This document shows, piece by piece, positions 219 through 24,298 of a stretch of DNA of 39,576 nt (position 1 is the first letter of the stretch; each line of letters opens with the position of its first letter). Made by a program: the position numbers and the translations under genes. Origin of the DNA: Bacteroidales bacterium UBA3742 (GTDB taxonomy: Bacteria; Bacteroidota; Bacteroidia; Bacteroidales; Paludibacteraceae); contig DFGU01000091.1 in NCBI GenBank assembly GCA_002371785.1, positions 1 through 39,576 on the forward strand, in the 5' to 3' direction. Below the pieces are notes generated by a model. It was not told the origin of the DNA. It saw only the letters and a program-made list of their open reading frames with translations, and searched no databases.

Positions 219-3166
219 AAGGCGATGCAGGCATGGGATTTGAAACCATCGATATACATGCGGAGATCATCGTCCAGGCGGACGTGACGCACGAGGTCGG
301 TCTCCTCGACAGCCGGCAGGGCATTGAGAATGGCCTCGTCGTAGTGCTCAGCGGGGCGTGCCCAAGGGTCGATATTCATATAGCCGACGTTGAAGGAGGT
401 CAAGTTCTGGAAGAAATGGGAGCCCTGGCTGGGTTCGATGCGGAAGTTCTCGAGCGAGCACTCGGCGATAGCCTTGGCCTCGCTGATGTCGCTCCACTGG
501 ACGGGTACGCCCAGCGTAGGTATCTGGGATCCCCAACGGCCGTAACCGATGAGCAGGTAGGAACGTCCCTCCTCACGCATGCGGGCATTCCAGGTGCGGA
601 TGGTCTCGGCCATCTCGCGTGTACGCAGCACGTCGAATGCTTCGCGACGCAGGTAGATGATATCGCGTACGCCCTCTATCTGGCCGATGCCGAGGGCATT
701 GTCGGAACGCATGAAGGCGTCGGACTCGTCGATCTGGTTCCAATCGACCTTGGCGGTAAGCGAGTCGGCCGAGATAGGACGAATCTGCAAGACGTGGAAG
801 ATCTGGGGTTCACGTTCCAGGTTGACGGCAAACTCGATCTCCACAGGGCACTTGATTTCCTGCTGTGCCATCTCGAGCAACTGGCGGATGATCTCGGCCA
901 GCGGGAAAGTGCGGAACTTGAGTTGCGGCGCGAAGGTGACGATACGCGGTCCGTCGGGATAGCAGGAATCGACGATGCGCATATTCTCGCGGTCGTAGGT
1001 GGAGGCGATCATCTTGAGCGACTCAAACTGGTCGCAAGCATGGATGGGGAAGCGCTCCAGATTGACAGCATCGTCGATGGAGGTGCGGAATTTCTCCGGG
1101 CTGAGCGAGAGGGCGAGCATCGACTGCTGGGTCTCACGCATAGCCAGATCGACGGTAGAGGTCTGCATGACGTTCTTAGGGTAGCGCGGCGAGAAGCGAA
1201 GTACCTGTTCGCCATCGACGACTACTTTACCCAGACCGTATGCCACCTTGACGATACCATCTTCGGGTTTCTCCTTGCCTACCGGGTAGAAATTGACACT
1301 ACGTGCCACGCCGGAGATGACGGGGAAGAAGTAGTTGCCTTCCTGTTCGCCGCAGACCTCCTGGAGCACAACGGCCATCTTCTCCTCGGAGAGCACGTTG
1401 CCCGTGGACGTGATATAACCACGCGAGGCGGCGTAATAGACCGAGGCATAGACCGACTTGATGGCCTTGCTCAGCAGACGGAGCTCTTGGTCCTCGTTCT
1501 CGGTATTGGGAATCATGTAGGTGCTATAGACGCCTGCAAAGGGCTGATAGTACGAGTCCTCGAGTTTGCTGGACGAACGTACGGCCAGCGGCTTATGGGT
1601 GACGCGGATGAAATGGCGCAAGGCATCACGCAATTCGATAGGCAGGGCAGCCGCTACGAATTCGGAGAGTATCTCATCGTCCGAGAGGTCGGCATTGATG
1701 ACATACTGGAGGCCGTTCTCATGGATGAAGCGGTCGAAGTACTCGGTGGTGATGACCATGGTACGCGGTACGAAGATACGGATACCTTCCCAGCGGTCAT
1801 AGAGGTCGTTTTTCTGGAGGACGTGGTTGAGGAAGGCCAATCCGCGTCCCTTGCCACCCATAGCGCCATCGCCACAACGGGCAAACCAGATGGTGTCATT
1901 GTAGGTCTCGGGCGAGTACTTAGCCACCACGCCAAGCGCCTGGTTGATACGATAGTCGTGGATGAGGCGTATATTGGTCTGGCGGATATTCTCTATGTCG
2001 GTCTCGTCCTGGATCTGGAGCGTCTTGACCCGGCGTCCGATAGCGAAGAGTCCGCGGGCAAAGAGCCACTTACTGAGGTAGTTGTTGTCGCTCAGTCGGC
2101 GGAAAGCAGCGGGCGAGATGGTGGAGATGATACGTTCGAATCCCTCCAAATCGCTCGCGCGCGCGATCTCTTTACCCGTACGCGGGTCGCGCGCGATGAA
2201 GTCGCCGAAGCCAAACTCACGTTCGATGTACTCGCTCACCTCTTGGGTCAGGGTCTTGGAGGTCTTGATGACGAAGCCCACGTTGAGTTTGCGGGCGATG
2301 GAGCGCATCGACTCCTGGGACGACTGCATGAGGAAGGGCATCGTGGGATTGTCCTCGCGGATGAGTTGACAGAGTTCGATACCGGCATCCAGTTTCTCCG
2401 ACGAGGACGGATCGCCCTTATGGAGCACAAAACCGATATCAGAGATGACACCCAGCATATTGCGGCCATACTGCTGGTAGAGCTCGACGGCTTCGTCATA
2501 ACAGGTAGCCATGAGCATCTTAGGTCGTGCACGCTTGCGGAGCAGTTGTTGCTTCTCGTTGAGGGCATCACGGATGGCGATGGTGTTCTGCCGAAGCAGG
2601 AGCTTGTAGAGCAAAGGCAGGTAGGTGGAGTAATAGCGGACGGAGTCCTCGACGAGCAGGATGGCGCGTACGCCCTCCTCCAGAATGTCGTGCGGCGCAT
2701 TCATGCGGTCCTCGATGAGCTTGATGATCGCGATGATGAGGTCGGTGGAGTTGTTCCAGTTGAAGAAATAGTCGATATCCGAGCGGTCGTGCTGCTCGAT
2801 ACGGTTGTATATCTCCTTGCTGAAAGCCGATAGAAGGACTATCGGGCACTCGGGAAGCAACTGCTTGGCCTCGCGGGCGAAGTCGAACACGTCCAGTTCG
2901 CCAACGCTGTACATGGTGAGGATGAGGTCGTATGTCTCGCCATTCGTCCTTTCGCCATTCGCCTTGATCAGGTCCAGGGCCTCGCGCGTGGTCTCAGCCC
3001 GCACGATGGACGGCGGGTTGGAGAGGTTGAGTTCGGCGTATTCCTGAGCGATTTGCACCTCAATACGGCCATCTTCCTCGAGGGCAAAACTATCGTAGTT
3101 GTTGCACACCAAGAGAATTCTCCGAACCCTCTTGCTCATCAGCGATGTATAATTGCTATGATCCAT
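215..3166 (-). CDS. PEP/pyruvate-binding (PPDK_N / PEP-utilizer ATP-grasp-like) domain protein with N-terminal receiver-like domains
   Basis: A 983-aa ORF. The N-terminus has two CheY-like stretches (RILLVCNNYDSFALEEDG..., AILLVEDSVRYYS...). The C-terminal two thirds resemble the nucleotide-binding domain of PEP synthase / pyruvate phosphate dikinase (GGKGRGLAFL, AVRSSSKLEDS). Confidence 0.8.
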   Translation of the reverse strand: MDHSNYTSLMSKRVRRILLVCNNYDSFALEEDGRIEVQIAQEYAELNLSNPPSIVRAETTREALDLIKANGERTNGETYDLILTMYSVGELDVFDFAREAKQLLPECPIVLLSAFSKEIYNRIEQHDRSDIDYFFNWNNSTDLIIAIIKLIEDRMNAPHDILEEGVRAILLVEDSVRYYSTYLPLLYKLLLRQNTIAIRDALNEKQQLLRKRARPKMLMATCYDEAVELYQQYGRNMLGVISDIGFVLHKGDPSSSEKLDAGIELCQLIREDNPTMPFLMQSSQESMRSIARKLNVGFVIKTSKTLTQEVSEYIEREFGFGDFIARDPRTGKEIARASDLEGFERIISTISPAAFRRLSDNNYLSKWLFARGLFAIGRRVKTLQIQDETDIENIRQTNIRLIHDYRINQALGVVAKYSPETYNDTIWFARCGDGAMGGKGRGLAFLNHVLQKNDLYDRWEGIRIFVPRTMVITTEYFDRFIHENGLQYVINADLSDDEILSEFVAAALPIELRDALRHFIRVTHKPLAVRSSSKLEDSYYQPFAGVYSTYMIPNTENEDQELRLLSKAIKSVYASVYYAASRGYITSTGNVLSEEKMAVVLQEVCGEQEGNYFFPVISGVARSVNFYPVGKEKPEDGIVKVAYGLGKVVVDGEQVLRFSPRYPKNVMQTSTVDLAMRETQQSMLALSLSPEKFRTSIDDAVNLERFPIHACDQFESLKMIASTYDRENMRIVDSCYPDGPRIVTFAPQLKFRTFPLAEIIRQLLEMAQQEIKCPVEIEFAVNLEREPQIFHVLQIRPISADSLTAKVDWNQIDESDAFMRSDNALGIGQIEGVRDIIYLRREAFDVLRTREMAETIRTWNARMREEGRSYLLIGYGRWGSQIPTLGVPVQWSDISEAKAIAECSLENFRIEPSQGSHFFQNLTSFNVGYMNIDPWARPAEHYDEAILNALPAVEETDLVRHVRLDDDLRMYIDGFKSHACIAL

Positions 3167-3195
3167 TGTTACATTAGAATGTTACTATTTATTAT

Positions 3196-3831
3196 TTACT
3201 CTGTTCCAAACAGGAATCGGCGAAAGACGGTTTTTGCGGCGTCCGCACCAATCATCTTGCTGACAACCCTATACGTAGGTCCGTCGTTGATCAGTCCCTC
3301 TACATAGGCGCTGTTGCGGGCAGACTTGGCTGTCAAATCCACGTCGCGGGCAGTCGCGAAAAGATGGATATAAGCGGTCATCATTTCCGTTGCCAAGGCC
3401 GAGAGACGTGCCGTATCGCCCACTTTGGACACGCTGGGTGGCAGCAGCAGATCGTTGTACCATCCCGGGTGCTTGGGTTTGTCCCTGAGGTCGCGATAGG
3501 CCTCTTTTATCGTCTGCAGAGCCGATAGATCAGCCGGTGCTACTTGGGTGTCATAGATATCCACCAGCAGCGTTTTCCTGCCGAAAGCGCTGATATAGTC
3601 GTAGGAGAGCAACGGCAGGTCCTTGGCATACGGCGTACAGATAAGCGTCTCCATCTTCATCAAACCGAAGAACGCCCGCATCGTGAGATACGACACGCAC
3701 GCACAATGGTTCCAATCGTAGGACTGCAAGCAGAACGTCATTCCCCTGCCGGAGAAAGTCTGCCAAGGCGTCACATCCTTTGGAACGAGTGCCCCTTTGG
3801 CGGAAAAGATGTCAAGCTTTGAGCCACTCAT
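3196..3831 (-). CDS. Hypothetical protein with possible ferredoxin-dependent bilin reductase (FDBR)-like fold
   Basis: A 211-aa ORF with host-like composition. By eye, METLICTPYAKDLPLLSYDYISAFGRKTLLVDIYDT and the C-terminal NDGPTYRVVSKMIGADAAKTVFRRFLFG resemble conserved PcyA/PebS-type segments. The start is uncertain because it overlaps the upstream gene by 20 nt. Confidence 0.55.
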   Translation of the reverse strand: MSGSKLDIFSAKGALVPKDVTPWQTFSGRGMTFCLQSYDWNHCACVSYLTMRAFFGLMKMETLICTPYAKDLPLLSYDYISAFGRKTLLVDIYDTQVAPADLSALQTIKEAYRDLRDKPKHPGWYNDLLLPPSVSKVGDTARLSALATEMMTAYIHLFATARDVDLTAKSARNSAYVEGLINDGPTYRVVSKMIGADAAKTVFRRFLFGTE

Positions 3832-4606
3832 AACGTGCTACGGAATAGATCGGCAACAGCGGAATCAGAATGGGCGTTTTCTTGATGTACGCCTGATATT
3901 CGGGGTCGGCACCGTAAGCCGCGTTCTGGCGGATCTCCAAACGACGGGCACCGCTGAACATGACGTAAACGATACAGATATAACCGAGGGCCGCTATCAT
4001 CCACTGCCACCATACCAGTCCTGCCCCGATAGCGCTGAGCATCACACCCGTCCAGATGAGCACTTCGCCGAGATAGTTCGGACAGCGTACAATGCGGTAG
4101 AGACCGGTATCCACAAAGCGTTTGGGATTGCGTTTCTTGGCGGCGGACTTTTGTGCGTCACTACCCGCTTCCAGCAATATACCACACAGCATGACGGCGG
4201 CGCCTATCCATGCCCATGTCTCGGAACCCTGCACGCCGTTCATCAAGCGGAACGCCACAGGACTGACCTGCATCACGTACAACAGCGCGCAGGATATCCA
4301 TATAATACTCATTGCAGCCGCAGGTTTCTTCTCCGGAGCGTCTCCGCCATACAGGATTTTCCGATACGCCGCCGATTTGCGTTCGCGCATAAACAGATAC
4401 GTGCCGAGACGCATGCCGAAGATGACCATCAGCAGGAGCAACGCAATCGTAGCAGGCGTCAGTGCCGCATAGTACAACACACCCATCGCCACAGCCAAGG
4501 CCACCACGCTATAGCCGTAGCCGATACTGAAAAAATAGATGAAATACTTCCACCCCACAGCCGAAACCGCGAGCGAAACAGCCAAAAGAATTAGTAATTT
4601 AAGCAT
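3812..4606 (-). CDS. DUF1295 / steroid-5-alpha-reductase-like integral membrane protein
   Basis: A 264-aa polytopic membrane ORF. The C-terminal motif GLYRIVRCPNYLGEVLIWTG is typical of the DUF1295 / ICMT-like reductase-methyltransferase superfamily. Confidence 0.8.
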   Translation of the reverse strand: MLKLLILLAVSLAVSAVGWKYFIYFFSIGYGYSVVALAVAMGVLYYAALTPATIALLLLMVIFGMRLGTYLFMRERKSAAYRKILYGGDAPEKKPAAAMSIIWISCALLYVMQVSPVAFRLMNGVQGSETWAWIGAAVMLCGILLEAGSDAQKSAAKKRNPKRFVDTGLYRIVRCPNYLGEVLIWTGVMLSAIGAGLVWWQWMIAALGYICIVYVMFSGARRLEIRQNAAYGADPEYQAYIKKTPILIPLLPIYSVARYEWLKA

Positions 4607-4673
4607 GATATGTAGGTATTATAAATTTCAATAATGTATTGTTGTTTACTTTGCCGTGTACCCTCAGTTTGAA

Positions 4674-5042
4674 CTATTCGGAAATTTCGAATAGTTGCCC
4701 CTTCTGATCATCATTTGTTTTTGCCAATTGCCCGATGACAAAGCCACGGAGGGTGAAATAGTATTTGTCGGAGGGCTTGGCTGTGGATTTGTATTCGTCG
4801 TAACGTTGCTGCCAATAGGCTCGGCGAGCGGGATCAGCCAGTTCCTGTTTGGCTTGCTTGGAGATTTGGGCAAAAGAGGAATTCAGTTCACGCTGATGGG
4901 GCGTGATTTTTGAGGGATCACGATGTTTCGGATAATGACTAATGACCGTCTTTCCATAGCGATGGGTGATGTAGATATCACTATCGCCATAGATTTTGCC
5001 GGACATTTTGTCTAATGAGATATTTAATTCCGCTTGGGCCAT
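4674..5042 (-). CDS. Hypothetical protein (122 aa)
   Basis: An intact ORF at the edge of the AT-richer block, on the same strand as its neighbours. No domain recognised. Confidence 0.55.
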   Translation of the reverse strand: MAQAELNISLDKMSGKIYGDSDIYITHRYGKTVISHYPKHRDPSKITPHQRELNSSFAQISKQAKQELADPARRAYWQQRYDEYKSTAKPSDKYYFTLRGFVIGQLAKTNDDQKGQLFEISE

Positions 5043-5157
5043 AATTTTCTTCTTATATTATTTAATTATTATGCTTATCTTGGTAGGACATTAGCCTCCG
5101 ATGTCGTCTCGTTGCCGTGTCGTTGTCGAGTGCAACTAAGGTTTGACGGGGGATTAA

Positions 5158-5361
5158 TTACTCTTTCAGCCAAACTGGTCTTTCCTCTGTTTCTTTAAAT
5201 GCTTCTAAATACGGATGCCATCTCAGAAAGTTTTGCATCTCTTGGCCATGTTCTTTATAACTGATGATTTCACCATTATCGCCAACATTGAGTGCATAAA
5301 CCTTTTCTGCAGTTGTATCTATTAGATACTCCAAACTTTCTTCTCCGCAAAAGACAAACAT
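5158..5361 (-). CDS. Hypothetical small protein (67 aa), weak SUKH/SMI1-like C-terminal resemblance
   Basis: The ORF starts 24 nt downstream of the DUF262 gene stop and is AT-rich like that gene. The pattern EYLIDTTAEKVYALNVGDNGEIISYKEHGQEMQNFLRW loosely recalls SMI1/KNR4-type immunity domains. Confidence 0.45.
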   Translation of the reverse strand: MFVFCGEESLEYLIDTTAEKVYALNVGDNGEIISYKEHGQEMQNFLRWHPYLEAFKETEERPVWLKE

Positions 5362-5385
5362 AGGATTAACTAGTAAACAAAATTA

Positions 5386-7215
5386 TTATTCTTGTTCTTC
5401 GTCTTCCGAATCATTATCTACAAAAACACCTTCTTCATTCAGATTTTGCACGTCACGAACGATAGGTTTACCCATTGCATTCTCAATGAGTTTAAAGATT
5501 GCTTCTTTTCTATCATCTATAAAATCATTAAATCTATCATAACGCACCAGTTCTGGGTTAATCACATGTGTGCGTAAAAGGTTGTCTATATCTTCAGCGG
5601 AAATTTTTGCCTTCTTCTCCAAGCGTATAAGATATTTGCTTGGAGCCTCTCCGCCGACAAAGATGTTTGTACCTTTAGAAAGTGGCGTTTTATTTATAAT
5701 TGTATCATAATCACTCTTGGGGATCTTGTTGTTCTCACACCAGAGTCGTGGAAATATATGATGAATATCTATTGATTTTTGGAAATATGTTTCCATTTCT
5801 ATTTTTGAACCCGTAAGCCAATCCGTCGTGTTTTCTCCCATTAATAATGCATATATTCCCTTGTATGCAGCACTATTACGAGTTCGTAATGTTTGCAAAC
5901 GAGAAGGAGAGAATACTGCATCATATATAGTTTGAGGCTCTTTCTCATCATTAAGAATCCAACCTACGACTTGCTGAATATCCAAGGCATAACGCGTTTC
6001 GTTGGCAGATCCATATAGCTCTCCAAAGACGCCACACCAAAACCAACGCATTAATTTATTCTTATTTCCTATATTATCAATCTCTTTTCCTAATACAGCA
6101 ATGATTGCTGACATCGGTATCAGTTGAGAAGTATATGGTAAATCACGAGCTGTAAATATATGATTACAAGTTAGAAGTTCTGCCGCTTTTATAAAGCCAT
6201 CAACAATTTCTTGTCGAGTGTCCTCATATTCATCAACTTTCAATTCTAGCATGCTTTTTCTTTTTGCGCTAACGGCAGGAATCTTTTCTGTCTCATTGCT
6301 TGCCTGCATTGCCGCCATTTTCTTCTTATATGTAGAAAGCAAAGTTACAGCTTGGATTAAATCGGTATTACATGTATTTTTTAGTACTTTATGATTGTTA
6401 AATGATGCATGAATATTGTCCCAATCTTTTTTCAAATCAAATCCACTTGCGGCATAAGTAGCAGTAAGCAATTCAAATACAGTCAAAGAAACACCGCCCG
6501 TATTGACCTTTTCAAACACCTGACAAACTGCTTCTTTACTATTCTCTTTTTTCATCACAATCACAGGCACACTATAGTGGCTATAATTGTTTATGACATA
6601 TCGTTCAAATTGACTTAAGAATCTCAATTTCTCGGTATCATAATTCCAATACTCCTCAAAATGCCATCTCCATTCGCTAAATTCATCAATCATGCACACA
6701 GGAAACATCATATTTTCAAACTCTTTCTCTTGTGTACTCAAATCACAGATAATATCATGACCAATATTCTGAGTGGCAATTTTGTTTTCATTGATAGAAA
6801 AAATCGCTTCTTCTAAATCCAAATCAGGATTCAAGGCCTTTTGCATATCTATATAATACCATCTTTTTATTTCATAGCCTTTTGAATTTTTCGTATTGAC
6901 AACACTATTTGAAACAATTGTTTGATACAAACTCGTCAAACGCTGCTGACCGTCAAGGATTAAATACTCCGGCTTAATATCTTTTGATATATTCACTCCT
7001 TCTACAGGTTTAGTCTTAAAAGAAGTGTTTTCTCCTGTTTCGAGAAGAGTAACAACACTTATTGGGAATGATTTGATTACAGATGCAATCAGTCCTTTGA
7101 TGCGGTTGTCATCCCACACCCATCCTCTTTGAAAGTCAGGAAGTTGAATTTTCCCTGTTTTGATGTCACATAGCAAATCTGCTAATGGTTTCTTCGTTGT
7201 ATCAAATGTTTCCAT
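5386..7215 (-). CDS. GmrSD-like DUF262 (ParB-like NTPase) / DUF1524 (His-Me finger nuclease) fusion protein, probable type IV (modification-dependent) restriction / defence nuclease
   Basis: A 609-aa ORF. The N-terminal LPDFQRGWVWDDNRIKGLIASV matches the DUF262 DxQRxxVW signature. The C-terminal DIHHIFPRLWCENN...INKTPLSKGTN matches the DUF1524 H..P...N...N pattern. Strongly AT-rich relative to the flanks. Confidence 0.85.
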   Translation of the reverse strand: METFDTTKKPLADLLCDIKTGKIQLPDFQRGWVWDDNRIKGLIASVIKSFPISVVTLLETGENTSFKTKPVEGVNISKDIKPEYLILDGQQRLTSLYQTIVSNSVVNTKNSKGYEIKRWYYIDMQKALNPDLDLEEAIFSINENKIATQNIGHDIICDLSTQEKEFENMMFPVCMIDEFSEWRWHFEEYWNYDTEKLRFLSQFERYVINNYSHYSVPVIVMKKENSKEAVCQVFEKVNTGGVSLTVFELLTATYAASGFDLKKDWDNIHASFNNHKVLKNTCNTDLIQAVTLLSTYKKKMAAMQASNETEKIPAVSAKRKSMLELKVDEYEDTRQEIVDGFIKAAELLTCNHIFTARDLPYTSQLIPMSAIIAVLGKEIDNIGNKNKLMRWFWCGVFGELYGSANETRYALDIQQVVGWILNDEKEPQTIYDAVFSPSRLQTLRTRNSAAYKGIYALLMGENTTDWLTGSKIEMETYFQKSIDIHHIFPRLWCENNKIPKSDYDTIINKTPLSKGTNIFVGGEAPSKYLIRLEKKAKISAEDIDNLLRTHVINPELVRYDRFNDFIDDRKEAIFKLIENAMGKPIVRDVQNLNEEGVFVDNDSEDEEQE

Positions 7216-7249
7216 TGTGTATTTAAGATTTTAATTTTACGTTGTTATA

Positions 7250-7687
7250 TTAAAAGTTATCCCAATCTATCACTCGTGCAAAGTCGTGGTAGTTAATGGA
7301 TTTTATATGTTTTCCTATTATTTCTTGGAGAGATGTGTCCAAACTTGGCGCATCATCAAACCAAACTATCGTCAAGTGGCTGTCATTCGATTTGTCTCTT
7401 AACGACAATTCAAAACGATATGATTTTAGTATTTCGTCGGGTTTTAAAGGATCGTCGTCTATTATTTGGAAAGGCTTTTGTTCGCACGTTTCTATTTGAT
7501 CGGGGGTTAGTTGAAATAAAAAGCCTTCTTCCTTTGATTGTTTCAACAATCTTTGCAATATGTGGACAGCAACGCTATGGAAAGAGCCTTCCATACTACC
7601 TTCATATGTGTTTGAAACCCGAAAAGAACGTATTTCTACATCCTTTTCATCCGGGAAATCAATTGTTATGTGCTTTTTATTCTGCAT
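7250..7687 (-). CDS. Hypothetical protein (145 aa), first gene of the DUF262 block
   Basis: An intact ORF 34 nt upstream of the DUF262 gene, with the same strand and AT-rich composition. No domain recognised. Confidence 0.6.
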   Translation of the reverse strand: MQNKKHITIDFPDEKDVEIRSFRVSNTYEGSMEGSFHSVAVHILQRLLKQSKEEGFLFQLTPDQIETCEQKPFQIIDDDPLKPDEILKSYRFELSLRDKSNDSHLTIVWFDDAPSLDTSLQEIIGKHIKSINYHDFARVIDWDNF

Positions 7688-7737
7688 TATTTATAATAGT
7701 TTACAAAGTGTCTACTATCGGGTGGTGTTATTTTTTT

Positions 7738-7997
7738 AATCCTCCATAAATGGCGGATACTTTTCTTTCAATCCTCCATATATGGCGGATACTTTTCTTT
7801 TAATCCTCCATATATGGCGGATACTTTTCTTTTAATCCTCCATAAATGGCGGATGCTTTTCTTTCAATCCTCCATATATGGCGGATACTTTTCTTTTAAT
7901 CCTCCATAAATGGCGGATGCTTTTCTTTTGATCCTCCATATATGGCGGATACGGTGGGTGCTTTTAATCCTCCATATATGGCGGATACTTTTTTTGG
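7738..7997. repeat. Tandem array of 8 head-to-tail units (32 bp; unit 7 is 36 bp), each AATCCTCCATAWATGGCGGATRC plus a T-rich linker (REP-like array)
   Basis: Direct reading puts the CCTCC unit starts at 7741, 7773, 7805, 7837, 7869, 7901, 7933 and 7969. Each unit holds an imperfect 20-bp palindrome whose arms are ATCCTCCAT/ATGGCGGAT, with one T:C mismatch. Two unit variants (ATAAAT and ATATAT cores) partly alternate. Confidence 0.95.
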
Positions 7998-8000
7998 TTG

Positions 8001-8020
8001 ATCCGCCAAACTTGGCGGAT
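8001..8020. repeat. REP-like palindrome ATCCGCCAAACTTGGCGGAT (9-bp perfect arms)
   Basis: Read directly. It lies between the tandem array and the RAYT-like stop codon. An extra half-site GGCGGATAC sits at 8030-8038. Confidence 0.9.
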
Positions 8021-8039
8021 GCGTTTCTTGGCGGATACG

Positions 8040-9203
8040 TTATTCGGTATGGCGGGTGCTATGCATTGTATGGCGGGTAGTACTATGCATTGTAGGGCGG
8101 AGGCTGTTCTTACATATTTGGGCGGCGAGGGTGTTCATGTTATGGAAGCGGCTGTAGTCGGTATCTGCGGGGATGTCGTTGACATCTCCCATATCGGTCA
8201 GTTGCCAGGGAGAGAGAATGAGCAATTGTCCCATCTCACAGAGCTGATGACGCCGCTTCTCCGGATGCCAGCCATCGCGTATGGGTTCTTTTTGCAAATG
8301 GATAAGCGGAAGGGCTTGCTCGATACAATCCTTGACCAGTTGTTGTTCGCCTTTCGATATACCCGGTGTGACCAATACGGCGCCATCCTTGGCTGCTTGG
8401 ATCCATGCGGCGCGTTCTTGCTGGAACGCGTCGGTGGTCTCATAGCGGGTATTATAGTCGCGTTGATCGCCGCGCATAAGCCAACGATGGCAGAAGACCT
8501 GTTCTTTCCACGGGCGCTTGAGCAAAAAGAGATTTCCATATGCAGCGAAGTCCTGTCCGTCGATGGTGATATGCTGGCGACGCTGGAACAAATCGGGATA
8601 CAAACCTCGCATGATCGCCCGACGAGGATTATCCTGGACATAGTTGATGATGTTCTCCAGCTGGCCTTTGCGGTAACAAATGGTATCATCGTAATTGTCG
8701 TCGAAGAGGGGCTCTATATCATGCTCGGCATAATAGGTCTCGCGCTTTTTGCGGGAGGAATGGGCGAGGTATTCGCGATCTATGTCGGGATCCGCCATAT
8801 ATGGCGGATACAAAGAACGATACGCCTGTGTACAGCCCATTTTGAAGCCGCGGATGATCTCACCAAGAGGTACGTCCAAGGGACGCTCTACCTGGAGGAT
8901 ACCATGGAAATGGTCGGGCATGACCTGGTAGCCCAGCGAACGGATTTGACGGCCGCGGGCGGTTTGCTTATCAAAGGTCTGTAGCCACGCTTGCTCTACG
9001 TATTGACCAAGCTTGGTCAATACGATAGAGGGAGCGGAGAGATCGTTGTTCAGTTCGCCAAACACGCGCTTGCGTGCGTGCGTGACGATAGTAATAAGGT
9101 ATATCCCGGAGGATTTGTAATCCCTCCAGGTATTGTGAGGACGATGGGCGCTACTCAATAGGCCGCCACGGTCCTTCCAATATGTATACCAATCGAACGA
9201 CAT
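8040..9203 (-). CDS. REP-associated tyrosine transposase (RAYT)-like HUH/Y1 protein with a long C-terminal extension
   Basis: A 387-aa ORF. It has the HUH motif (VMPDHFHGILQV) and the downstream Y motif (ENIINYVQDNPRRAIMRGL, compare YIxxNP of IS200/RAYT Y1 enzymes). Palindromic repeats flank it on both sides. About 180 further residues after the Y motif have no recognised domain. Confidence 0.8.
   Translation of the reverse strand: MSFDWYTYWKDRGGLLSSAHRPHNTWRDYKSSGIYLITIVTHARKRVFGELNNDLSAPSIVLTKLGQYVEQAWLQTFDKQTARGRQIRSLGYQVMPDHFHGILQVERPLDVPLGEIIRGFKMGCTQAYRSLYPPYMADPDIDREYLAHSSRKKRETYYAEHDIEPLFDDNYDDTICYRKGQLENIINYVQDNPRRAIMRGLYPDLFQRRQHITIDGQDFAAYGNLFLLKRPWKEQVFCHRWLMRGDQRDYNTRYETTDAFQQERAAWIQAAKDGAVLVTPGISKGEQQLVKDCIEQALPLIHLQKEPIRDGWHPEKRRHQLCEMGQLLILSPWQLTDMGDVNDIPADTDYSRFHNMNTLAAQICKNSLRPTMHSTTRHTMHSTRHTE
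8047..8100. repeat. Degenerate tandem repeat GTATGGCGGGT..CTATGCATT (2.4 copies) inside the 3' end of the RAYT-like ORF
   Basis: Read directly: gtatggcgggtgctatgcatt / gtatggcgggtagtactatgcatt / gtagggcgg. It encodes the repetitive C-terminal tail TMHSTTRHTMHSTRHTE. Confidence 0.85.
8790..8809. repeat. Perfect 20-bp palindrome ATCCGCCATATATGGCGGAT inside the RAYT-like coding sequence
   Basis: Read directly. It is self-complementary over all 20 nt and encodes PPYMADPD, between the HUH and Y motifs. Confidence 0.95.
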
Positions 9204-9211
9204 TGTTTATG

Positions 9212-9264
9212 ATCCGCCATGTATGGCGGATACGTATGGGGAGGATCCGCCATACATGGCGGAT
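9212..9264. repeat. Two REP-like palindromes: ATCCGCCATGTATGGCGGAT at 9212-9231 and ATCCGCCATACATGGCGGAT at 9245-9264
   Basis: Read directly. They fill almost the whole gap between the gdhA stop (9268) and the RAYT-like start (9203). Confidence 0.95.
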
Positions 9265-9267
9265 GCG

Positions 9268-10623
9268 TTATACCAGGCCTTGCTCGACCATGGCGTTGGC
9301 GACTTTCATGAAGCCGGCGATGTTAGCACCACGGACGTAGTTGATATAGCCGTCCTCCTCTGTGCCATACTTGAGGCAAGCGGCGTGGATGTCGGCCATG
9401 ATGGTACGCAGACGTTGATCCACCTCCTCGGCGGTCCACTTGAGACGCATCGAGTTCTGGCTCATCTCGAGACCGGAGGTAGCTACACCACCGGCGTTGC
9501 TGGCCTTACCCGGGCTATAGAGGATCTTAGCGCCTTGGAACAACGCAATAGCATCCGGCGTGGTCGGCATGTTAGCGCCTTCGGTCACGCAGAAGCAACC
9601 GTTCTTAAGCAGGTTCTCGGCGTCGGCTTTTTCAATCTCGTTCTGCGTAGCGCACGGCATAGCGATATCGCAAGGGATGCGCCATGGACGCTCGCCGGGG
9701 AAATACTGAGCCTGCGGATACTTAGCCACGTACTCTTTGATACGGCCGCGACGAACGTTTTTGAGTTCGAAGACATAGGCCATCTTCTCTTCGTTGAGAC
9801 CTTCCGGATCGTAGATGAAACCGTCGGAGTCGCTCAAAGTGAGCACCTTGGCGCCCAGACGCATGGCCTTCTGGGCAGCGAACTGCGCTACGTTACCGGC
9901 ACCGGAGATACATACACGCTTGCCCTCGAAGGACTCACCACGCGTTGCGAGCATCGCCTCGGCGAAGTAACAAGCACCGTAGCCGGTAGCCTCCGGACGC
10001 ATGAGCGAACCGCCCCAGTTCTGGCCTTTACCGGTGAGCGTACCGGTGAACTCGTCACGCAGACGCTTGTACTGGCCGAACATAAAACCAATCTCACGAC
10101 CACCTACACCGATATCACCGGCCGGTACGTCGGTATCAGCACCGATATGACGCTGGAGCTCGGTCATAAACGACTGGCAGAAACGCATCACCTCGGCGTC
10201 GGACTTGCCACGCGGCGAGAAATCGGATCCACCCTTGGCACCACCCATCGGCAGCGTGGTGAGGGCGTTCTTGAAGGTCTGCTCGAAGGCGAGGAACTTC
10301 ATGATACTCAGGTTGACAGACGCATGGAAACGGATACCTCCCTTATACGGACCGATAGCCGAGTTCATCTGTACGCGGAAGCCGCGGTTGATCTGCACCT
10401 CGCCCTCATCGTCCATCCACGGTACGCGGAACATGATGACGCGCTCGGGTTCTACCATGCGCTCCATGATCTTCTGCTCACGCAGATAGGGATAGGCCAT
10501 GATCATCGGTGCGACCGATTCTACTACTTCGCGAACAGCCTGGTGGAACTCGTGCTCACCGGGGTTCTTGCTGATCAGGTCGGCCATAAAAGACTCGACA
10601 TACATTTGGGTTTGTTTGTCCAT
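9268..10623 (-). CDS. gdhA: NADP-specific glutamate dehydrogenase
   Basis: A 451-aa ORF with hallmark GDH segments (KGGIRFH, LPMGGAKGGSDF, GAGNVAQ). Confidence 0.95.
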   Translation of the reverse strand: MDKQTQMYVESFMADLISKNPGEHEFHQAVREVVESVAPMIMAYPYLREQKIMERMVEPERVIMFRVPWMDDEGEVQINRGFRVQMNSAIGPYKGGIRFHASVNLSIMKFLAFEQTFKNALTTLPMGGAKGGSDFSPRGKSDAEVMRFCQSFMTELQRHIGADTDVPAGDIGVGGREIGFMFGQYKRLRDEFTGTLTGKGQNWGGSLMRPEATGYGACYFAEAMLATRGESFEGKRVCISGAGNVAQFAAQKAMRLGAKVLTLSDSDGFIYDPEGLNEEKMAYVFELKNVRRGRIKEYVAKYPQAQYFPGERPWRIPCDIAMPCATQNEIEKADAENLLKNGCFCVTEGANMPTTPDAIALFQGAKILYSPGKASNAGGVATSGLEMSQNSMRLKWTAEEVDQRLRTIMADIHAACLKYGTEEDGYINYVRGANIAGFMKVANAMVEQGLV

Positions 10624-19738: not shown

Positions 19739-21061
19739 TCAGTGCTGTCTGACATACATGACTAAGCGTAAAGGACGAGAGTCGTCGTCGGCTTTCTTGA
19801 ATTGCAACAGGATCGGATCGTCGGGTTTCGGCAGGCGAACACCTACCAGTTCCGTCCAAGGAGACAGTTTGTCAGCCGCTTTGCGTCGGCGTTGGATGTC
19901 TCGGGCAGTCTGGTTCTTTCGACGATGGCTCACCCCGGGCTGGAAGGGTTCGATGATATGTTGCTGCTCGGCCAGCACGATCTGCTCGGCAGACGCCACG
20001 AACAGCGCCTCGCCGGCTACGCGGCTACAATATTCTGCAAATCGGGTACGATCCGTCTTGTTCATCCCGAGGGCTATGCTCCCGGACTTATCCGGCGCGT
20101 CCTTCTGCATGATTTTCTTCCAGAGCGCGCTTTCCACGTCCTCCGAGATATAATACGGCTGCTCTGCCGGCACATAGACAAAGCGCAACTTCTTGCCCTT
20201 CAGGCGAATAGAACGCGTGAGCGGCGCTTCTTTGTTTTCCACGACCTGCATCATAGGATCGTCGGGAAGCGTAAACGCCACCCGCAGACCGATATAGCCG
20301 GCGGTGGTCTCGGGCACGTACCAACGGCGTACGGAGATATGGCTATTTGCAGCACATTCATCGTAACTGCTGCCACGAGCTATCCGATAGCTGCCCGTGT
20401 CGGCACCGCATGGATTCGGCGTTGTGCTCAACTGATAGGCACCGTAAATATCCTGACACCATTCAGCCACATTACCCGTCATATCATACAACCCCAATTC
20501 ATTCGGATGCTTGTGTCCCACATGGTGCTTCCAATTACCCGAACACGAGTAGGTCCACCCTACGCTATCGAGTTCGTTGCCGCCCGAGAAACGATAGTGT
20601 TTACTTTGCGCCCCACCACGTGCGGCATATTCCCATTCTGCCTCGGTCGGCAGACGAAACGGCAGACCGGTGATACTATCCAGCCGACGCACAAACTCCT
20701 GACAATCATGCCAAGAAATAAACGAGATTGGTAAGGTAGGATGATACTTGGGACTAATGATTTCCTTTTCCGGCATCACGGCATGCCACAGTTCGACGGT
20801 CACTTCCGTGGTGGCCATGTAATACGGGGAGAGAAAGACCAGATGAGCCGGTTTATCGGTATAGATATCCTTATCATATTGATCCTGCGTGGCCCCCATC
20901 ATGAACGAACCGCCCTCCACGCGTTGCATCGTAAACGGGATGCCATGGACTAATATCTCCAACCGCTGCAACGAATCGGGCACAACTGGTCGATGCTTAC
21001 GCGCCGACACCGGCTGCACCAAGCATAGCAATCCTATCAGTATGACCCATACTCGACTCAC
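19739..21061 (-). CDS. Formylglycine-generating enzyme (SUMF1/FGE-sulfatase) family protein with C-terminal extension
   Basis: FGE-domain motifs are present (EAEWEYAARGG, GLYDMTGNVAEW, RGSSY). I set the start to the GTG at 21061, which gives a signal-like MSRVWVILIGLLCLVQPVSA. The listed 21217 start adds an implausible AT-rich leader. Confidence 0.75.
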   Translation of the reverse strand: MSRVWVILIGLLCLVQPVSARKHRPVVPDSLQRLEILVHGIPFTMQRVEGGSFMMGATQDQYDKDIYTDKPAHLVFLSPYYMATTEVTVELWHAVMPEKEIISPKYHPTLPISFISWHDCQEFVRRLDSITGLPFRLPTEAEWEYAARGGAQSKHYRFSGGNELDSVGWTYSCSGNWKHHVGHKHPNELGLYDMTGNVAEWCQDIYGAYQLSTTPNPCGADTGSYRIARGSSYDECAANSHISVRRWYVPETTAGYIGLRVAFTLPDDPMMQVVENKEAPLTRSIRLKGKKLRFVYVPAEQPYYISEDVESALWKKIMQKDAPDKSGSIALGMNKTDRTRFAEYCSRVAGEALFVASAEQIVLAEQQHIIEPFQPGVSHRRKNQTARDIQRRRKAADKLSPWTELVGVRLPKPDDPILLQFKKADDDSRPLRLVMYVRQH

Positions 21062-21342
21062 ACCCAGAATGCAACAAATATCGTGCCACACAATATTTTT
21101 TTCGAAGAAAAAAATATATGCAAGCTGTACGATTCTTAAGATTTTTCCTAGCAAGGGGCAAGCCATATGCAAGCCATGGTTTTCCCATGGTTTATAATTA
21201 CCTGTTTTTGCCCCCAAAAATATACGATTGTTAAGATTTTGAGGTTTAAACCTATACTATTTCCAAAATAGAGGATTTTGAATGAAAATTTAACAAATTC
21301 TGAAGATTCTTACTTGAAAACTTGTATATGTTGTAAAAAAAT

Positions 21343-21482
21343 AGTACCTTTGCGACCGATTTTGAACGCAAGGGTACTATTAAAACGACACCCGATAGTT
21401 TGACTTGCGTCAGGGACTACCGGGGATTCCGCTGCAAAAGTACTACATTTTTTTGAATTGTGCAAATATTTTGACAAAAAAA
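21343..21482 (+). repeat. 140-bp direct repeat, copy 1 (promoter box plus structured leader)
   Basis: By eye it is identical to 22241-22380 except for one position (21360 t versus 22258 a). It contains TACCTTTG at 21345-21352 and 13-nt imperfect inverted termini (tagtacctttgcg ... gcaaaagtactac). Confidence 0.9.
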
Positions 21483-21614
21483 TTACATTTTTAATGAAAG
21501 ACACATCATATATTATAAATGAATACTATATAGTCTTGATCATGTACAAGCAGTTTGTAACAAGATAAATCAGGTAAAGGCGGCTATTAACCATTATTTT
21601 TAAATTGCATATAT

Positions 21615-22019
21615 ATGAAACGGTTTATTTTCTTATTATCTGTTATTTGCCTTGTGGCATCATGTTCAAAACCACCTTATGTAGATCGCTATTACGTATA
21701 CGATGACGACGACGGCTGTGCGTTTATTTTCCATAATGACGGCTCGGTGGACATATACGAATTCTTCTGGCGTGAACACATTAGAGGAACATATATCTGT
21801 AATTTCCCTCAAGTATCTATTACTATAACTGAACTGGATTCGGGGACAAGACCGGAGATACGCTATTATAACGAAGCTCCTTCTGCATATCCAGATTCGT
21901 TATGGTTTAGCTCACAATCTGATACATTGTATAGGTACAATCCATCATATATACGTGACACCATCCCGTTAACTACGTCAAATTGGTTGGATTTCATGTT
22001 ATTCAGAATTGGATTGTGA
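21615..22019 (+). CDS. Hypothetical small lipoprotein (134 aa)
   Basis: It has a lipoprotein signal with lipobox (MKRFIFLLSVICLVASC), is AT-rich, and lies between the two 140-bp repeat copies. Confidence 0.65.
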   Translation: MKRFIFLLSVICLVASCSKPPYVDRYYVYDDDDGCAFIFHNDGSVDIYEFFWREHIRGTYICNFPQVSITITELDSGTRPEIRYYNEAPSAYPDSLWFSSQSDTLYRYNPSYIRDTIPLTTSNWLDFMLFRIGL

Positions 22020-22043
22020 GTGATGAATTCAAGGGTACCGACT

Positions 22044-22071
22044 GAGAGTGAAAGATTCGAGGGATTCGAGG
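22044..22071 (-). other. Degenerate fragment of the tRNA-Ser 3' end (att-like scar)
   Basis: gagagtgaaagattcgagggattcgagg, compared with the tRNA 3' end ggagagtgagggattcgaacc at 24300. It sits directly after the lipoprotein gene stop. Confidence 0.55.
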
Positions 22072-22240
22072 ACACCGACATTGCCTGCGGCAATCCCACC
22101 TCGAAAACCCTAAAGCCTGCCGGCGGCACCTTGTTCAAAGAAAAAAAGAGCGATTTGCTTGCTTGAGTAAACTCAGACAGACAAATCGTCCTTTTTTCTT
22201 TGCGAAAATGATAAAATTCTTGCATATGTCAGAAAAAAGT

Positions 22241-22380
22241 AGTACCTTTGCGACCGAATTTGAACGCAAGGGTACTATTAAAACGACACCCGATAGTTTG
22301 ACTTGCGTCAGGGACTACCGGGGATTCCGCTGCAAAAGTACTACATTTTTTTGAATTGTGCAAATATTTTGACAAAAAAA
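22241..22380 (+). repeat. 140-bp direct repeat, copy 2 (promoter box TACCTTTG at 22243-22250 plus leader of the Abi-like gene)
   Basis: See copy 1. The offset between copies is exactly 898 bp. Confidence 0.9.
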
Positions 22381-22392
22381 AAAGAATTTTTT

Positions 22393-22689
22393 ATGAAATA
22401 TACCGATTTTGAAGCAATAATGTCACCGGAACGAATGAGCAGATACCTCATTGCGACCAAAGGAGACACCAATAAGGCAATGGCACTTTACCGGGCCAAC
22501 TTGCATCTTTCGCAAGAGGTTTTTACGGTAGTGAGTTGTTTTGAGGTTGCGCTTCGAAATGCAATTGATGAGCGTTTGAAAGTGACATTAGGGGCGGATT
22601 GGCTTCGTGATGCTATACAACCAGGCGGTATATTTGATGTCAAGAAATTTTCTAAAAACATCTTCCTGTCATATATAATAACAAAGTGA
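22393..22689 (+). pseudogene. Abi-family (Abi_2 / AbiD-AbiF-like) protein, N-terminal fragment only
   Basis: From the ATG at 22393: MKYTDFEAIMSPERMSRYL...ALYRANLHLSQEVFTVVSCFEVALRNAIDERL, which matches the conserved N-terminal Abi_2 pattern. The ORF stops after 98 aa, whereas family members are roughly three times longer. Confidence 0.55.
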
Positions 22690-22703
22690 ATTGATTTGCC
22701 CAT

Positions 22704-23885
22704 ATGAAGATGTTTTCTTTTTTAAAACTCTCAATTATTGTATCAGTTTGTTTATTTTGGGCTTCATGCGCCATCATCCGCGGCCAGATAGCGGACGGGC
22801 CGAGCGGCCCCTCTTCCTATAGTTTTGAGCATCACGCGCATGACACTATTGTCAATGGAGCAACGACTTTCAGCTTTCCATATGCTAATCAACAAGCTGA
22901 ATGGATTGACACGCTTCATTTCTTTACGCAGCCTCCTGCATATAAGCGGCCTCGAACCATGTGGGAAGCATTGGATGGCAAAACAGATACACAAGGTGTT
23001 CTAATCATCCAAAACGATAGCATCGTTTACGAGAAATGTCAGGGCGACATCTCGACTGACAGGATTGCTACAGTCTTCTCTGTCTCCAAATCGATCACTT
23101 CACTACTATGCGGCATCGCTGTTGACGAAGGGTATATCAAGAGTATCGACGATCCCGTAACTGATTATTTGCCCGAATTAAAACAGAAGAACGACATGTG
23201 GCAGAAACTGACTATACGCCATTTGTTGGATATGCGTAGCGGCTTGGATTTCGACGACACCTATTCTCTTCGTTTAAAAGACCTCAAGCGGCTGAATGCT
23301 ATGGCGAAGCTGAACTACGGCAAGAATATCATGAAGCAAATCAGAGGTCTGAAGTTCGAAAACGAACCCGGTACTATGTATAAATACGAAAGTATGACCT
23401 CGGAAATCTTAGGCATCGTCATCCAGCGAGCTACAGGTCAACGCTTTGTGGACTACTTGAGCGATAAGGTCTGGATTCCTTTACAAATGGAGTCACCAGC
23501 CATCATCAATATTGATAGCCGCAAGTACGATATGCCTCATACTTTTGGCGGTATCAGTACTACCATGAAAGATCTGGCAAAAATCGGCAGGTTATATTTG
23601 AATAAAGGGATGTGGAATGGTACACGTATCGTTAGCGAAGAGTGGATTCGTCTTTCGACGGAATATAATACGGAGAACGATGGGTATCACATGAATTGGT
23701 ACAACACTAGTTGGATGGATTACACGCCGGAATATCCAGGTTTTTACGCATATGGCATACGCGCACAAGTACTATACGTAAATCCATATAAGAATCTCAT
23801 CATGATACGTTTTGGCAAGCGCGATGACACATATGCTTTTATCCCATATATGTTTGAAATGCTCAGTAATAATGAAAGATTCTAA
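22704..23885 (+). CDS. Serine hydrolase, beta-lactamase/transpeptidase-like (class C/PBP4* family), lipoprotein
   Basis: A 393-aa ORF with a lipoprotein signal (LFWASC) and the SxxK active-site motif (FSVSKSITS). Confidence 0.85.
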   Translation: MKMFSFLKLSIIVSVCLFWASCAIIRGQIADGPSGPSSYSFEHHAHDTIVNGATTFSFPYANQQAEWIDTLHFFTQPPAYKRPRTMWEALDGKTDTQGVLIIQNDSIVYEKCQGDISTDRIATVFSVSKSITSLLCGIAVDEGYIKSIDDPVTDYLPELKQKNDMWQKLTIRHLLDMRSGLDFDDTYSLRLKDLKRLNAMAKLNYGKNIMKQIRGLKFENEPGTMYKYESMTSEILGIVIQRATGQRFVDYLSDKVWIPLQMESPAIINIDSRKYDMPHTFGGISTTMKDLAKIGRLYLNKGMWNGTRIVSEEWIRLSTEYNTENDGYHMNWYNTSWMDYTPEYPGFYAYGIRAQVLYVNPYKNLIMIRFGKRDDTYAFIPYMFEMLSNNERF

Positions 23886-23894
23886 ACGTATCTC

Positions 23895-23908
23895 GTGAGG
23901 GATTCGAA
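23895..23908 (-). other. Exact 14-nt copy of the tRNA-Ser 3'-end segment (gtgagggattcgaa)
   Basis: Read directly, 10 nt after the serine hydrolase stop. Confidence 0.6.
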
Positions 23909-23955
23909 AATTGCAAAGCAATAATCGACAGAGCGTAGCGGCGGAGAACCCACCG

Positions 23956-23984
23956 ATCGGGGGTTGAGAAGGCCCTCATCTCCG
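23956..23984 (+). other. Degenerate, inverted (plus-sense) copy of the tRNA-Ser T-arm/acceptor 3' end
   Basis: atcgggggttgagaaggccctcatctccg, compared with the tRNA sense sequence atcgggggttcgaatccctcactctccg. Confidence 0.45.
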
Positions 23985-24033
23985 AATAAAAGAAAAAGGG
24001 ACGCCCCTTGTGGGTATCCCTATTCTTTTACCG

Positions 24034-24049
24034 CGGAGAGTGAGGGATT
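24034..24049 (-). other. Exact 16-nt copy of the tRNA-Ser 3' end (cggagagtgagggatt)
   Basis: Read directly. It matches 24299-24314 of the intact tRNA gene. Confidence 0.65.
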
Positions 24050-24256: not shown

Positions 24257-24298
24257 TCCTTTTTGCATTTTGTTCAGTTTCCCGAACTCTTCGCTTTG

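Follow-up and report, generated by a model that had tools for sequence, protein, structure and literature searches.

We analyzed a 39,576-nt contig from a rumen Paludibacteraceae genome, Bacteroidales bacterium UBA3742 (DFGU01000091.1, positions 1 to 39,576; hereafter the window), in which a tandem array of short palindromes lies beside a gene whose product resembles the tyrosine transposases (RAYTs) associated with repetitive extragenic palindromic (REP) elements. The array (7738–7999, minus strand) is composed of eight head-to-tail units, each consisting of ATCCTCCATAWATGGCGGAT and a 12-nt T-rich linker; on the sense strand, the unit reads GY-ATCCGCC-ATWTAT-GGAGGAT plus a 12-nt A-rich linker. 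The T-variant copies begin at 7739, 7771, 7803, 7835, 7867, 7899, 7931 and 7967, with six spacings of 32 bp and then one of 36 bp, and a ninth copy follows at 8001 with a spacing of 34 bp. All eight array copies share one stem mismatch, in which left arm TCCTCC faces right arm GGCGGA (T:C on the plus strand, G:A on the minus strand), whereas the copies at 8001, 8790, 9212 and 9245 have perfect arms. Sequence and coordinates agreed in these respects with a preliminary description of this DNA, which had reported the eight 32-bp units, their common T:C mismatch, the last spacing of 36 bp and the four perfect copies. Tandem Repeats Finder (TRF) called a repeat at 7734–8029 (period 32, 9.1 copies, 85% matches, score 412), and the pattern ATCCKCCATNNATGGMGGAT, with up to two mismatches allowed, matched 12 times in the window and not at all in 100 dinucleotide-preserving shuffles.

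The linker is RCTTTTCTTTYR in units 1–6, ACGGTGGGTGCTTTTA in unit 7 and ACTTTTTTTGGTTG in unit 8. It had also been proposed that two unit flavors partly alternate along the array. Because ATAAAT loops sit in units 1, 4 and 6 and ATGC tails in units 4 and 6, the alternation holds over units 4–7 and breaks down over the rest of the window array; in a relative with 15 units (L128), the loops alternate over the first 7 units. Two other identities for the repeat were rejected: the linkers are near-identical 12-mers with no cas genes in the neighborhood, which rules out a CRISPR array, and 32 is not a multiple of 3, which rules out a coding repeat.

Further copies of the palindrome surround and interrupt the neighboring gene, an open reading frame (ORF) of 387 codons at 8040–9203 on the minus strand. 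The ninth copy (8000–8022, minus strand; perfect arms ATCCGCCAAACTTGGCGGAT with a GC tag) is the 3′-flanking palindrome nearest to this gene. Next to it lies a zone of decayed half-site repeats (8029–8103, minus strand), missed by the preliminary description, which overlaps the stop codon and the protein's C-terminal tail, predicted to be disordered. It holds GGCGGAT at 8030, GGCGGGT at 8051 and 8072 and GGCGGAG at 8096, spaced 16–24 bp apart, and TRF calls repeats here at 8011–8041 and 8047–8100 (period 24). The 24-bp repeat at 8047–8100, at the 3′ end of the coding sequence (CDS), duplicates TRHTMHS, and the protein has 387 aa here against 380 aa in relatives. An in-frame perfect palindrome within the CDS (8790–8809, minus strand) encodes YPPYMAD (aa 132–138), and two more perfect palindromes (9212–9231 and 9245–9264, minus strand) lie between the gdhA stop (9268) and the start of the ORF (9203), the nearer of them ending 8 nt before the ATG. 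On the other side of the array, the last unit is followed by a conserved CACCACCCGATAG (7715–7727, minus strand), beyond which the cargo varies by strain. All 12 window copies carry the G-Y tag on the minus strand, the sense strand for the co-directional genes, and along the array the units proximal to the gene are decayed and the distal ones homogeneous.

The protein comprises an N-terminal HUH/Y1 nuclease domain (approximately residues 30–206) and a C-terminal domain (approximately residues 207–365). Its HUH and tyrosine motifs are H98-F-H100 and Y188..N192-P193, and P96, H98, H100, Y188, N192 and P193 were invariant in an alignment of 33 full-length family members, in which a second conserved block lay in the C-terminal half. 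The NCBIfam model REP_Tyr_transpos (NF047646) matched residues 27–196 with an E-value of 4.8e-10 (39.5 bits against a cut-off of 80), and Pfam PF01797 scored 14.7 bits against a cut-off of 23. The whole protein had no Pfam family at E ≤ 0.01, a single-sequence PDB search with it gave nothing useful, and PADLOC and PHROGs returned nothing for it or for the 145-, 67- and 122-aa proteins encoded nearby. The AlphaFold2 model had a mean predicted local distance difference test (pLDDT) score of 88.6, falling below 50 for residues 378–387 and to 65 for the block at 131–140. For its N-terminal domain, Foldseek found TnpA of ISDra2, IS608 and IS200, as well as the E. coli RAYT in complex with a REP hairpin (4er8), on which the domain superposed with a root-mean-square deviation of 2.9 Å over 168 columns. 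Motifs on a Y1 transposase fold (HUH and Y---NP), the NCBIfam score and the predicted fold together support the earlier assignment of this neighbor as RAYT-like.

The predicted fold of residues ~207–365 resembles the Rossmann-type single-stranded DNA (ssDNA)-binding domain of DprA and of ShosA, the Shosta antitoxin. Foldseek placed ShosA (8zva) at an E-value of 5.7e-3 (probability 0.99) and DprA (3uqz) at 0.02 (probability 0.94), both with low TM-scores, and a profile search against PDB sequences agreed weakly (ISDra2 TnpA at E 0.004, DprA at E 0.3). Unlike those proteins, the C-terminal half matched nothing in Pfam, against which it was also searched alone, nor in NCBIfam or PADLOC. Among 1.84 billion representatives searched, E ≤ 1e-3 was reached by 2,390 clusters (at 50% identity) and E ≤ 1e-30 by 137, and the members are mostly 300–480 aa long and alignable over both halves. 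NCBI names the 387-aa protein “hypothetical,” and IMG labels cluster members “REP element-mobilizing transposase RayT”; no description of an HUH–DprA-like fusion was found in the literature searched. Compared with four relatives, the gene had a ratio of nonsynonymous to synonymous substitution rates (dN/dS) of 0.09–0.13, from which we conclude that it is under purifying selection and is maintained. In one type II CRISPR-Cas locus, cas9 and cas1-cas2 are separated by the gene for a 345-aa homologue with 33% identity, of the same family with HUH and C-terminal domains (L140:2501-3538, Logan SRR28408163_24048; L numbers denote individual loci); no CRISPR repeats were found in the 1.3 kb downstream, and we found no paper describing a homologue in such a setting.

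We compared the palindromes with their genes across homologues of 72–95% identity, collected by tblastn on loci fetched by DNA pattern and by contig look-ups. The close homologues with readable flanks were L031, L026, L022, L070, L012, L013, L128/129, L131–134, L145 and L146. Each of those examined had a 5′ palindrome no more than ~45 nt (usually no more than 10) upstream of the start codon and an internal palindrome at the same in-frame position, and all but L013 had a 3′ palindrome after or overlapping the stop; the gene is thus flanked on both sides by its own palindrome in the close homologues, L013 lacking the 3′ copy. The 5′ and internal copies were always perfect, and the 3′ copies of this clade were always of the GGAGGAT variant. 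In the protein, the peptide encoded by the internal copy (YPPYMAD) lies between the HUH and Tyr motifs, in a loop that is variable and modelled with low confidence, and across nine genes the stems of the internal palindrome were kept while the loop varied, L013 having the compensatory pair ATCAGCC/GGCTGAT.

More distant homologues carried palindromes of their own. In L138 (66% identity), ATCAGCCAAATTTGGCTGAT occurs internally and 5 nt after the stop; in L139 (39% identity), TCGTTGTCAATATTGACAACGA occurs upstream, with an extra half-site, and internally; and in L141 (35% identity), GTTGCTGTATCACAGCAAC is internal, with a one-base variant 70 nt after the stop. The internal palindromes of these genes occupy a position equivalent to that of the window copy, between the HUH and Tyr motifs, and two further homologues (L143 and L144, 44–45% identity) had no repeated palindromes. 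This co-variation of palindrome and protein is as expected of an enzyme and its recognition hairpin. The three distant homologues (L138:2501-3649, L139:2501-3700, L141:1501-2625) lie inside glycosyltransferase/capsule-like operons or beside an NRPS-like (nonribosomal peptide synthetase-like) gene.

When folded as ssDNA, the array unit with its 1×1 mismatch reached −3.5 kcal/mol on the plus strand and −4.3 kcal/mol on the minus strand, in line with the mismatched hairpin described earlier, and perfect copies reached −8.7 to −9.3 kcal/mol, with a 20-bp core made of an 8-bp stem and a 4-nt loop. This core falls within the range of the short (20–40 bp) stem-loop-forming palindromes that define REPs. 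The array as a whole folded well below its shuffles (z = −10.9), in part through pairing between adjacent units.

To follow the palindrome beyond the window, we scanned 185,579 species genomes (596 Gb) for the exact pattern ATCCKCCATNNATGGCGGAT. Among the matches listed, at least 117 stretches carried the exact pattern, ~60 of them in rumen Bacteroidales/Paludibacteraceae metagenome-assembled genomes (MAGs), which often had 5–7 or more palindrome-bearing contigs per genome; by our own arithmetic, ~35 matches would be expected by chance in the whole 596-Gb collection. The dispersed copies were mostly singlets, with a few direct doublets 28–45 bp apart, and several occupy orthologous positions in more than one species. 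G-Y stood on exactly one side of 40 of the 61 copies located away from the enzyme gene, against 22% expected, with T-rich sequence upstream of the tag. Crude gene calls put the flanking genes in co-directional orientation for 20 copies, convergent for 14 and divergent for 4, and 15 copies fell inside ORF calls; 34 of the 38 intergenic copies were at 3′ gene ends, and the tag was on the sense strand at a ratio of 12:1. The extragenic dispersal typical of REPs, mainly between co-directional or convergent genes, was seen in related genomes only. Since the scan pattern admitted only one mismatch variant, GGAGGAT, its recurrence among the dispersed copies is uninterpretable. Many of the dispersed Bacteroidales copies (in L009, L023, L024, L027, L055, L056 and L105) are enclosed by a larger inverted repeat, CGGCATTTCC ... 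GGAAATGCCG, found at least twice per genome in UBA2764 and RUG505, an arrangement that would result from insertion of the hairpin into another palindrome.

Flanking and in-gene copies in close homologues, co-variation in distant ones and dispersal at 3′ gene ends in relatives support the view, put forward in the preliminary description, that the palindrome behaves as a REP cognate to the RAYT-like gene.

The array itself is a variable-number repeat, with 0 to at least 19 units in relatives. Counting GGAGGAT-type units between the RAYT-like gene and the next gene, we found the same 8 units in the window and in L122, a second assembly (ENA ERZ12302853 NODE_142). There were 15 units in L128 and L129 (two samples), all at 32 bp; 4 in L031, with spacings of 37, 65 and 66; 3 in L131–134 (four samples); 3 at 34 bp in L145; and none in L026, L022 and L146. 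L135, a contig that starts inside the array, had at least 19 units, and L136, from the same metagenome, ends inside the array after at least 9. The partial arrays of L125 and L126 differed from the window in unit order. A strain-private array of invariant length, formed from a palindrome absent elsewhere, had been named as what would speak against a REP-like nature, and neither part of this description fits the locus. In the array-less L026 and L146, the single 3′ palindrome is followed by a flank, TAAAAGAAA, that the array linker resembles; the repeat unit therefore appears to be the hairpin together with its original flank.

We favor, at a probability of about 60%, the explanation that one mismatched copy of the cognate hairpin has expanded in tandem into a hypervariable array, with no demonstrated function. 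The HUH (RAYT-like) enzyme encoded next door would recognize the 20-bp palindrome, a REP-like hairpin element oriented by its 5′ G-Y tag. One mutated copy (right arm GGAGGAT) would have been amplified head-to-tail, along with 12 nt of the ancestral flank on its 3′ side (TAAAAGAAA...), to give the array, which occupies the intergenic space separating the enzyme gene from a restriction-gene cassette that is open to swapping. The array would grow and shrink by whole units through replication slippage or unequal recombination between 32-bp repeats, which hairpins on ssDNA would favor. The pattern of decayed proximal and homogeneous distal units fits slippage or unequal recombination with concerted evolution, and is also compatible with a possible second engine, in which the enzyme cuts and rejoins at equivalent positions of adjacent units. 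Because close relatives hold both the enzyme and the cassette without the array, the array is dispensable for both and is most likely a by-product of the REP/RAYT system, with at most side effects on transcript read-through or on enzyme titration.

This explanation accords with much that is known of the REP/RAYT systems of Proteobacteria, in which an HUH/Y1 gene is flanked by short palindromes (PMC2817692, PMC3116915, PMC3733652) that are also dispersed, mostly between co-directional or convergent genes, that carry a one-sided unpaired tag, and that can be tandemly reiterated together with flanking DNA, also beside the enzyme gene. The preliminary description overstated the case in calling it unusual for a direct array to abut the cognate enzyme. 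In Pseudomonas fluorescens SBW25, RAYT genes have evenly spaced tandem REP arrays and REPIN (REP doublet) clusters beside them (PMC3116915), and other species are known to have REP singletons reiterated in tandem (PMC3733652), so there is precedent for a head-to-tail REP array at the enzyme gene.

Several observations nevertheless count against our reading. The 387-aa protein misses both curated RAYT family thresholds (NF047646 and PF01797). The tag is only G-Y here, rather than GTAG or CGTC (PMC3733652), and the flanking copies are direct, judged by this tag, where those of classical RAYT loci are inverted (PMC2817692). The 39.6-kb window has no copy of the palindrome outside this locus, and in RUG505 the density was roughly 1 exact copy per 160 kb among the matches listed, far below that of classical REPs, of which there are usually more than 100 per genome (PMC2817692). 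The sense-strand bias of 12:1 fits a role at the RNA level as well as one on the lagging-strand template. Finally, GGAGGAT is kept in all 3′ units across the clade, including the diverged units of L031, L131 and L145, and this retention could reflect selection for the mismatch instead of neutral descent. The locus differs from proteobacterial REP/RAYT systems in other ways as well: the host belongs to the Bacteroidales, there are no REPIN doublets, the apparent copy number per genome is low, and the enzyme has double the length, carries a DprA-like domain at its C-terminus and scores below the cut-off of the curated RAYT hidden Markov model. The gene-flanking copies read CGY-AT..., one base short of CGTC-AT. 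The 8-bp stem starting with AT, the 4-nt loop and matches in Spirochaetes, Chlorobi and Alphaproteobacteria were considered as signs of membership of the CGTC-tagged REP superfamily, a candidate assignment from which the tag departs by this one base.

Other known systems offer partial likenesses. Like the locus, TnpA_REP subclass 2.4 (Quentin et al. 2018, PMC6006769) is found in Bacteroidetes (and in Cyanobacteria) and has the class 2 signature Y---NP; by motif, length and REP description, which are the terms of this comparison, it differs in having NH[IFV]H and YIxNNP where the window protein has DHFH and YVQDNP, a median length of 194 aa with no large C-terminal domain, and REPs that are long or “double foot.” The IS200/IS605 insertion sequences (IS608, ISDra2) share the Y1 HUH fold, give the best Foldseek and profile matches, and have imperfect hairpins at both ends on the same strand, and the module described here also occurs at more than one chromosomal site. 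Unlike them, however, it was seen as one copy per locus with no sign of multiple identical copies, its gene is mostly syntenic and under purifying selection, and it has a hairpin inside the CDS, a one-sided tandem array and an extra domain. The bacterial interspersed mosaic elements (BIMEs) of E. coli are likewise regularly spaced, higher-order REP clusters of variable copy number, but they alternate REP orientation (Y/Z), whereas the units here are head-to-tail and of one type. The earlier reading of the locus as a REP-like array next to a RAYT-like gene is right in kind, and the locus is a textbook member of neither family.

From ~13 kb to 3.8 kb, all genes of the window are on the minus strand, in the order spoU, gdhA (9268–10623), the 387-aa ORF, the array, orf145, a GmrSD-like gene, orf67, orf122 and a DUF1295 gene. 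The array lies at a step in GC content, from 53–56% to an island of 34–36%; base composition gave no usable replication-strand signal. The low-GC cassette (4674–7687, minus strand) consists of orf145 (7250–7687) downstream of the array, the GmrSD-like type IV restriction gene (5386–7215), orf67 (5158–5361) and orf122 (4674–5042), the last of which has no family match. The RAYT-like gene is found after gdhA, in synteny, in the window, L031, L026, L022, L128 and L131, and, in two other species, between murA and DsbD in L145 (3988–5767; 88% identity) and L146 (3974–5137). In L145, the string of palindromes, gene, three GGAGGAT units, CACCACCCGATAG and orf122 recurs as a unit whose window counterpart (4719–9233) follows gdhA, and orf122 accompanies the RAYT-like gene there; in L146, the gene stands alone at the murA/DsbD site without the cassette. 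L062 and L073 have gdhA and then a single palindrome with no HUH gene, followed by other cargo (an M23 peptidase and a YhcG/DUF1016 nuclease).

Directly past CACCACCCGATAG, four states of cargo were seen: orf145 with a GmrSD of 609 aa, orf145 with a very different GmrSD of 613 aa, an Mrr-like gene, or nothing; in L070 and L012, too, an Mrr-like gene comes after the HUH gene. Since this cargo differs between strains, the array borders a site at which defense genes are swapped, and since L026 has the cassette and no array, the array is not needed for the cassette. The 613-aa GmrSD has a GmrSD_C domain, and tblastn does not link it to the 609-aa form. Comparison of window 5386–7687 with L123, L128, L131 and L135 showed cassettes that differ between strains with nearly identical flanks, and orf145, orf67 and orf122 stay 94–100% identical across swapped cassettes.

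Three further features of the window were observed. A second, unrelated palindrome, AACTATTCG gaaattt CGAATAGTT, lies at 4669–4698 and overlaps the 3′ end of orf122, with ~33-bp matches in L062 (three) and L073 (one). The stretch at 3155–4715, which holds the DUF1295 gene (3812–4606), is absent from the otherwise collinear L031. A second low-GC stretch (21000–24400, 36–43% GC) ends beside tRNA-Ser (24298–24387, minus strand), as tRNA-linked islands usually do.

The co-directional run from gdhA to orf122 leaves room for the array to act at the RNA level, an explanation that we regard as possible but improbable. The array would then be transcribed as the 3′ part of the gdhA/RAYT-like mRNA, which it would stabilize, or it would attenuate read-through into the cassette, and its copy number would serve as a contingency dial resembling phase variation. 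Each unit folds as RNA at −6.8 to −7.2 kcal/mol, the dispersed copies sit at 3′ gene ends with their tags on the sense strand, and the hypervariable array lies immediately upstream of the defense cassette; E. coli REPs, as cited in PMC2817692, affect mRNA stability and termination. Against such a role, the sense-strand hairpin is followed by an A-rich run and not a U-run, the mismatch halves hairpin stability, a promoter and terminator scan gave no terminator excess over shuffles, and the array has no Rfam family. The same scan placed a promoter-like site, by consensus match only, between the array and orf145.

We also regard as doubtful the idea that the array is a functional structure made by the enzyme. 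Here, a mobile RAYT module would have the mismatched 3′ hairpins as its right-end type, and the array would be either a landing pad or recombination site for the exchange of defense cassettes, built by HUH cutting and rejoining, or a decoy that titrates the enzyme. The substrate reservoir and the end-like structure suggested in the preliminary description would be further candidate roles. The occurrence of the module (REP, RAYT-like gene, GGAGGAT units, CACCACCCGATAG and orf122) at two chromosomal sites speaks for this, as do the division between always-perfect 5′ and internal copies and always-GGAGGAT 3′ copies in the clade, the variable cargo directly past CACCACCCGATAG, and the confinement of all hairpins to a single strand, which is also seen at the ends of IS200/IS605; handling of ssDNA would be a fitting task for a DprA-like domain. 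On the other hand, L026 has the same GmrSD cassette with zero array units, L022 and L146 have the gene and a perfect 3′ palindrome but no cassette, and no cassette-side hairpins or circular junctions were seen. Swapping of cassettes in defense islands is common and needs no dedicated enzyme, and a shared founder mutation together with concerted evolution explains the uniform mismatch. A bolder version is more of a long shot: that HUH proteins with a DprA-like domain are a previously unrecognized class of ssDNA enzyme with a recognition hairpin inside the CDS, and that the array of mismatched hairpins is the working end of a mobile module that captures and exchanges defense genes (GmrSD, Mrr-like), an integron-like ssDNA cassette system in Bacteroidales, with a relative of the enzyme recruited between cas9 and cas1 in a type II CRISPR locus.

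Regular direct repeats of a palindromic site, with isolated tagged half-sites also repeated near the gene, would suit a protein-binding platform on double-stranded DNA, and origin-like or iteron-like roles had indeed been suggested for the array. Whether taken as origin iterons, a partition site or a regulator operator array, this very improbable reading is already largely refuted: the locus is chromosomal, with the conserved housekeeping neighbors spoU and gdhA and no rep or par genes present, the array is missing from close relatives, and a 32-bp period does not amount to an integral number of helical turns. Searches of 72,556 plasmids and 50,697 phage records yielded no similar DNA, and the one match in IMG/VR was an unrelated single palindrome.

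We give hardly any credence to a protein-sponge small RNA like CsrB or TwoAYGGAY, in which each unit would present one GGA motif (AUGGAGGAU). It was raised by matches outside Bacteroidales, which mostly had the loop ATGGAT or ATCCAT and lay within taxon-specific longer repeats. TwoAYGGAY RNA (RF01731) includes the exact 20-mer with loop ATGGAT (AUGGAU in the RNA) in Clostridia-type and other non-Bacteroidales MAGs (L072:7260-7418, L077:91-254, L102:5058-5219, L103:4041-4104). The function of TwoAYGGAY, a candidate small RNA, is unknown (PMC2864571), and binding to CsrA has been proposed for it (PMC4333381); the C-to-A change in the array units creates GGAGGA. The loops here, however, are AUAUAU or AUUUAU instead of AYGGAY, and TwoAYGGAY had no match at E ≤ 1 in 7000–9500 and none at the gathering score across the window. 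Neither the window nor 18 Bacteroidales loci matched this or any other Rfam family, so we take the shared stem for a by-product of how the scan pattern was written and not for a sign of homology. CsrA is not known from Bacteroidetes. The non-Bacteroidales matches, once entertained as REP relatives, are mostly TwoAYGGAY-type or nested hairpins instead; in the Halomonadaceae loci (L011–L068), a longer repeat shared by several Halomonas and Chromohalobacter genomes has the 20-mer at its core.

That the array is a mis-assembly or a collapsed repeat is scarcely credible, since the same 8-unit array appears in two assemblies, the 15-unit array in two samples and the 3-unit version in four, and point variants between units allow them to be ordered, although short-read contigs do break at the array, which makes the exact unit count in any one assembly uncertain. 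The four contigs encoding the identical protein all end 52–77 bp past the stop codon, and many contigs with relatives of the gene are barely longer than the gene itself.

To our knowledge, REP/RAYT biology has been worked out almost wholly in Proteobacteria, and how REPs spread and how RAYTs benefit the cell are still open questions. The locus would offer a Bacteroidales version of such a system, with a perfect 20-bp hairpin bearing a one-sided G-Y tag and a natural mismatched variant for comparison. For rumen Paludibacteraceae, the array is a hypervariable marker at a defense-gene swap site, useful for strain typing, and it breaks their short-read assemblies; should it prove inert, it would be an ordinary REP cluster in a new host. 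The interest of the locus comes less from the array than from the enzyme family and the in-gene hairpins. The family is large and unnamed, with an HUH core fused to a predicted DprA-like fold and a C-terminal half for which Pfam has no model, and the presence of different hairpins at the same in-gene place in distant relatives points to a specific pairing of protein and hairpin.

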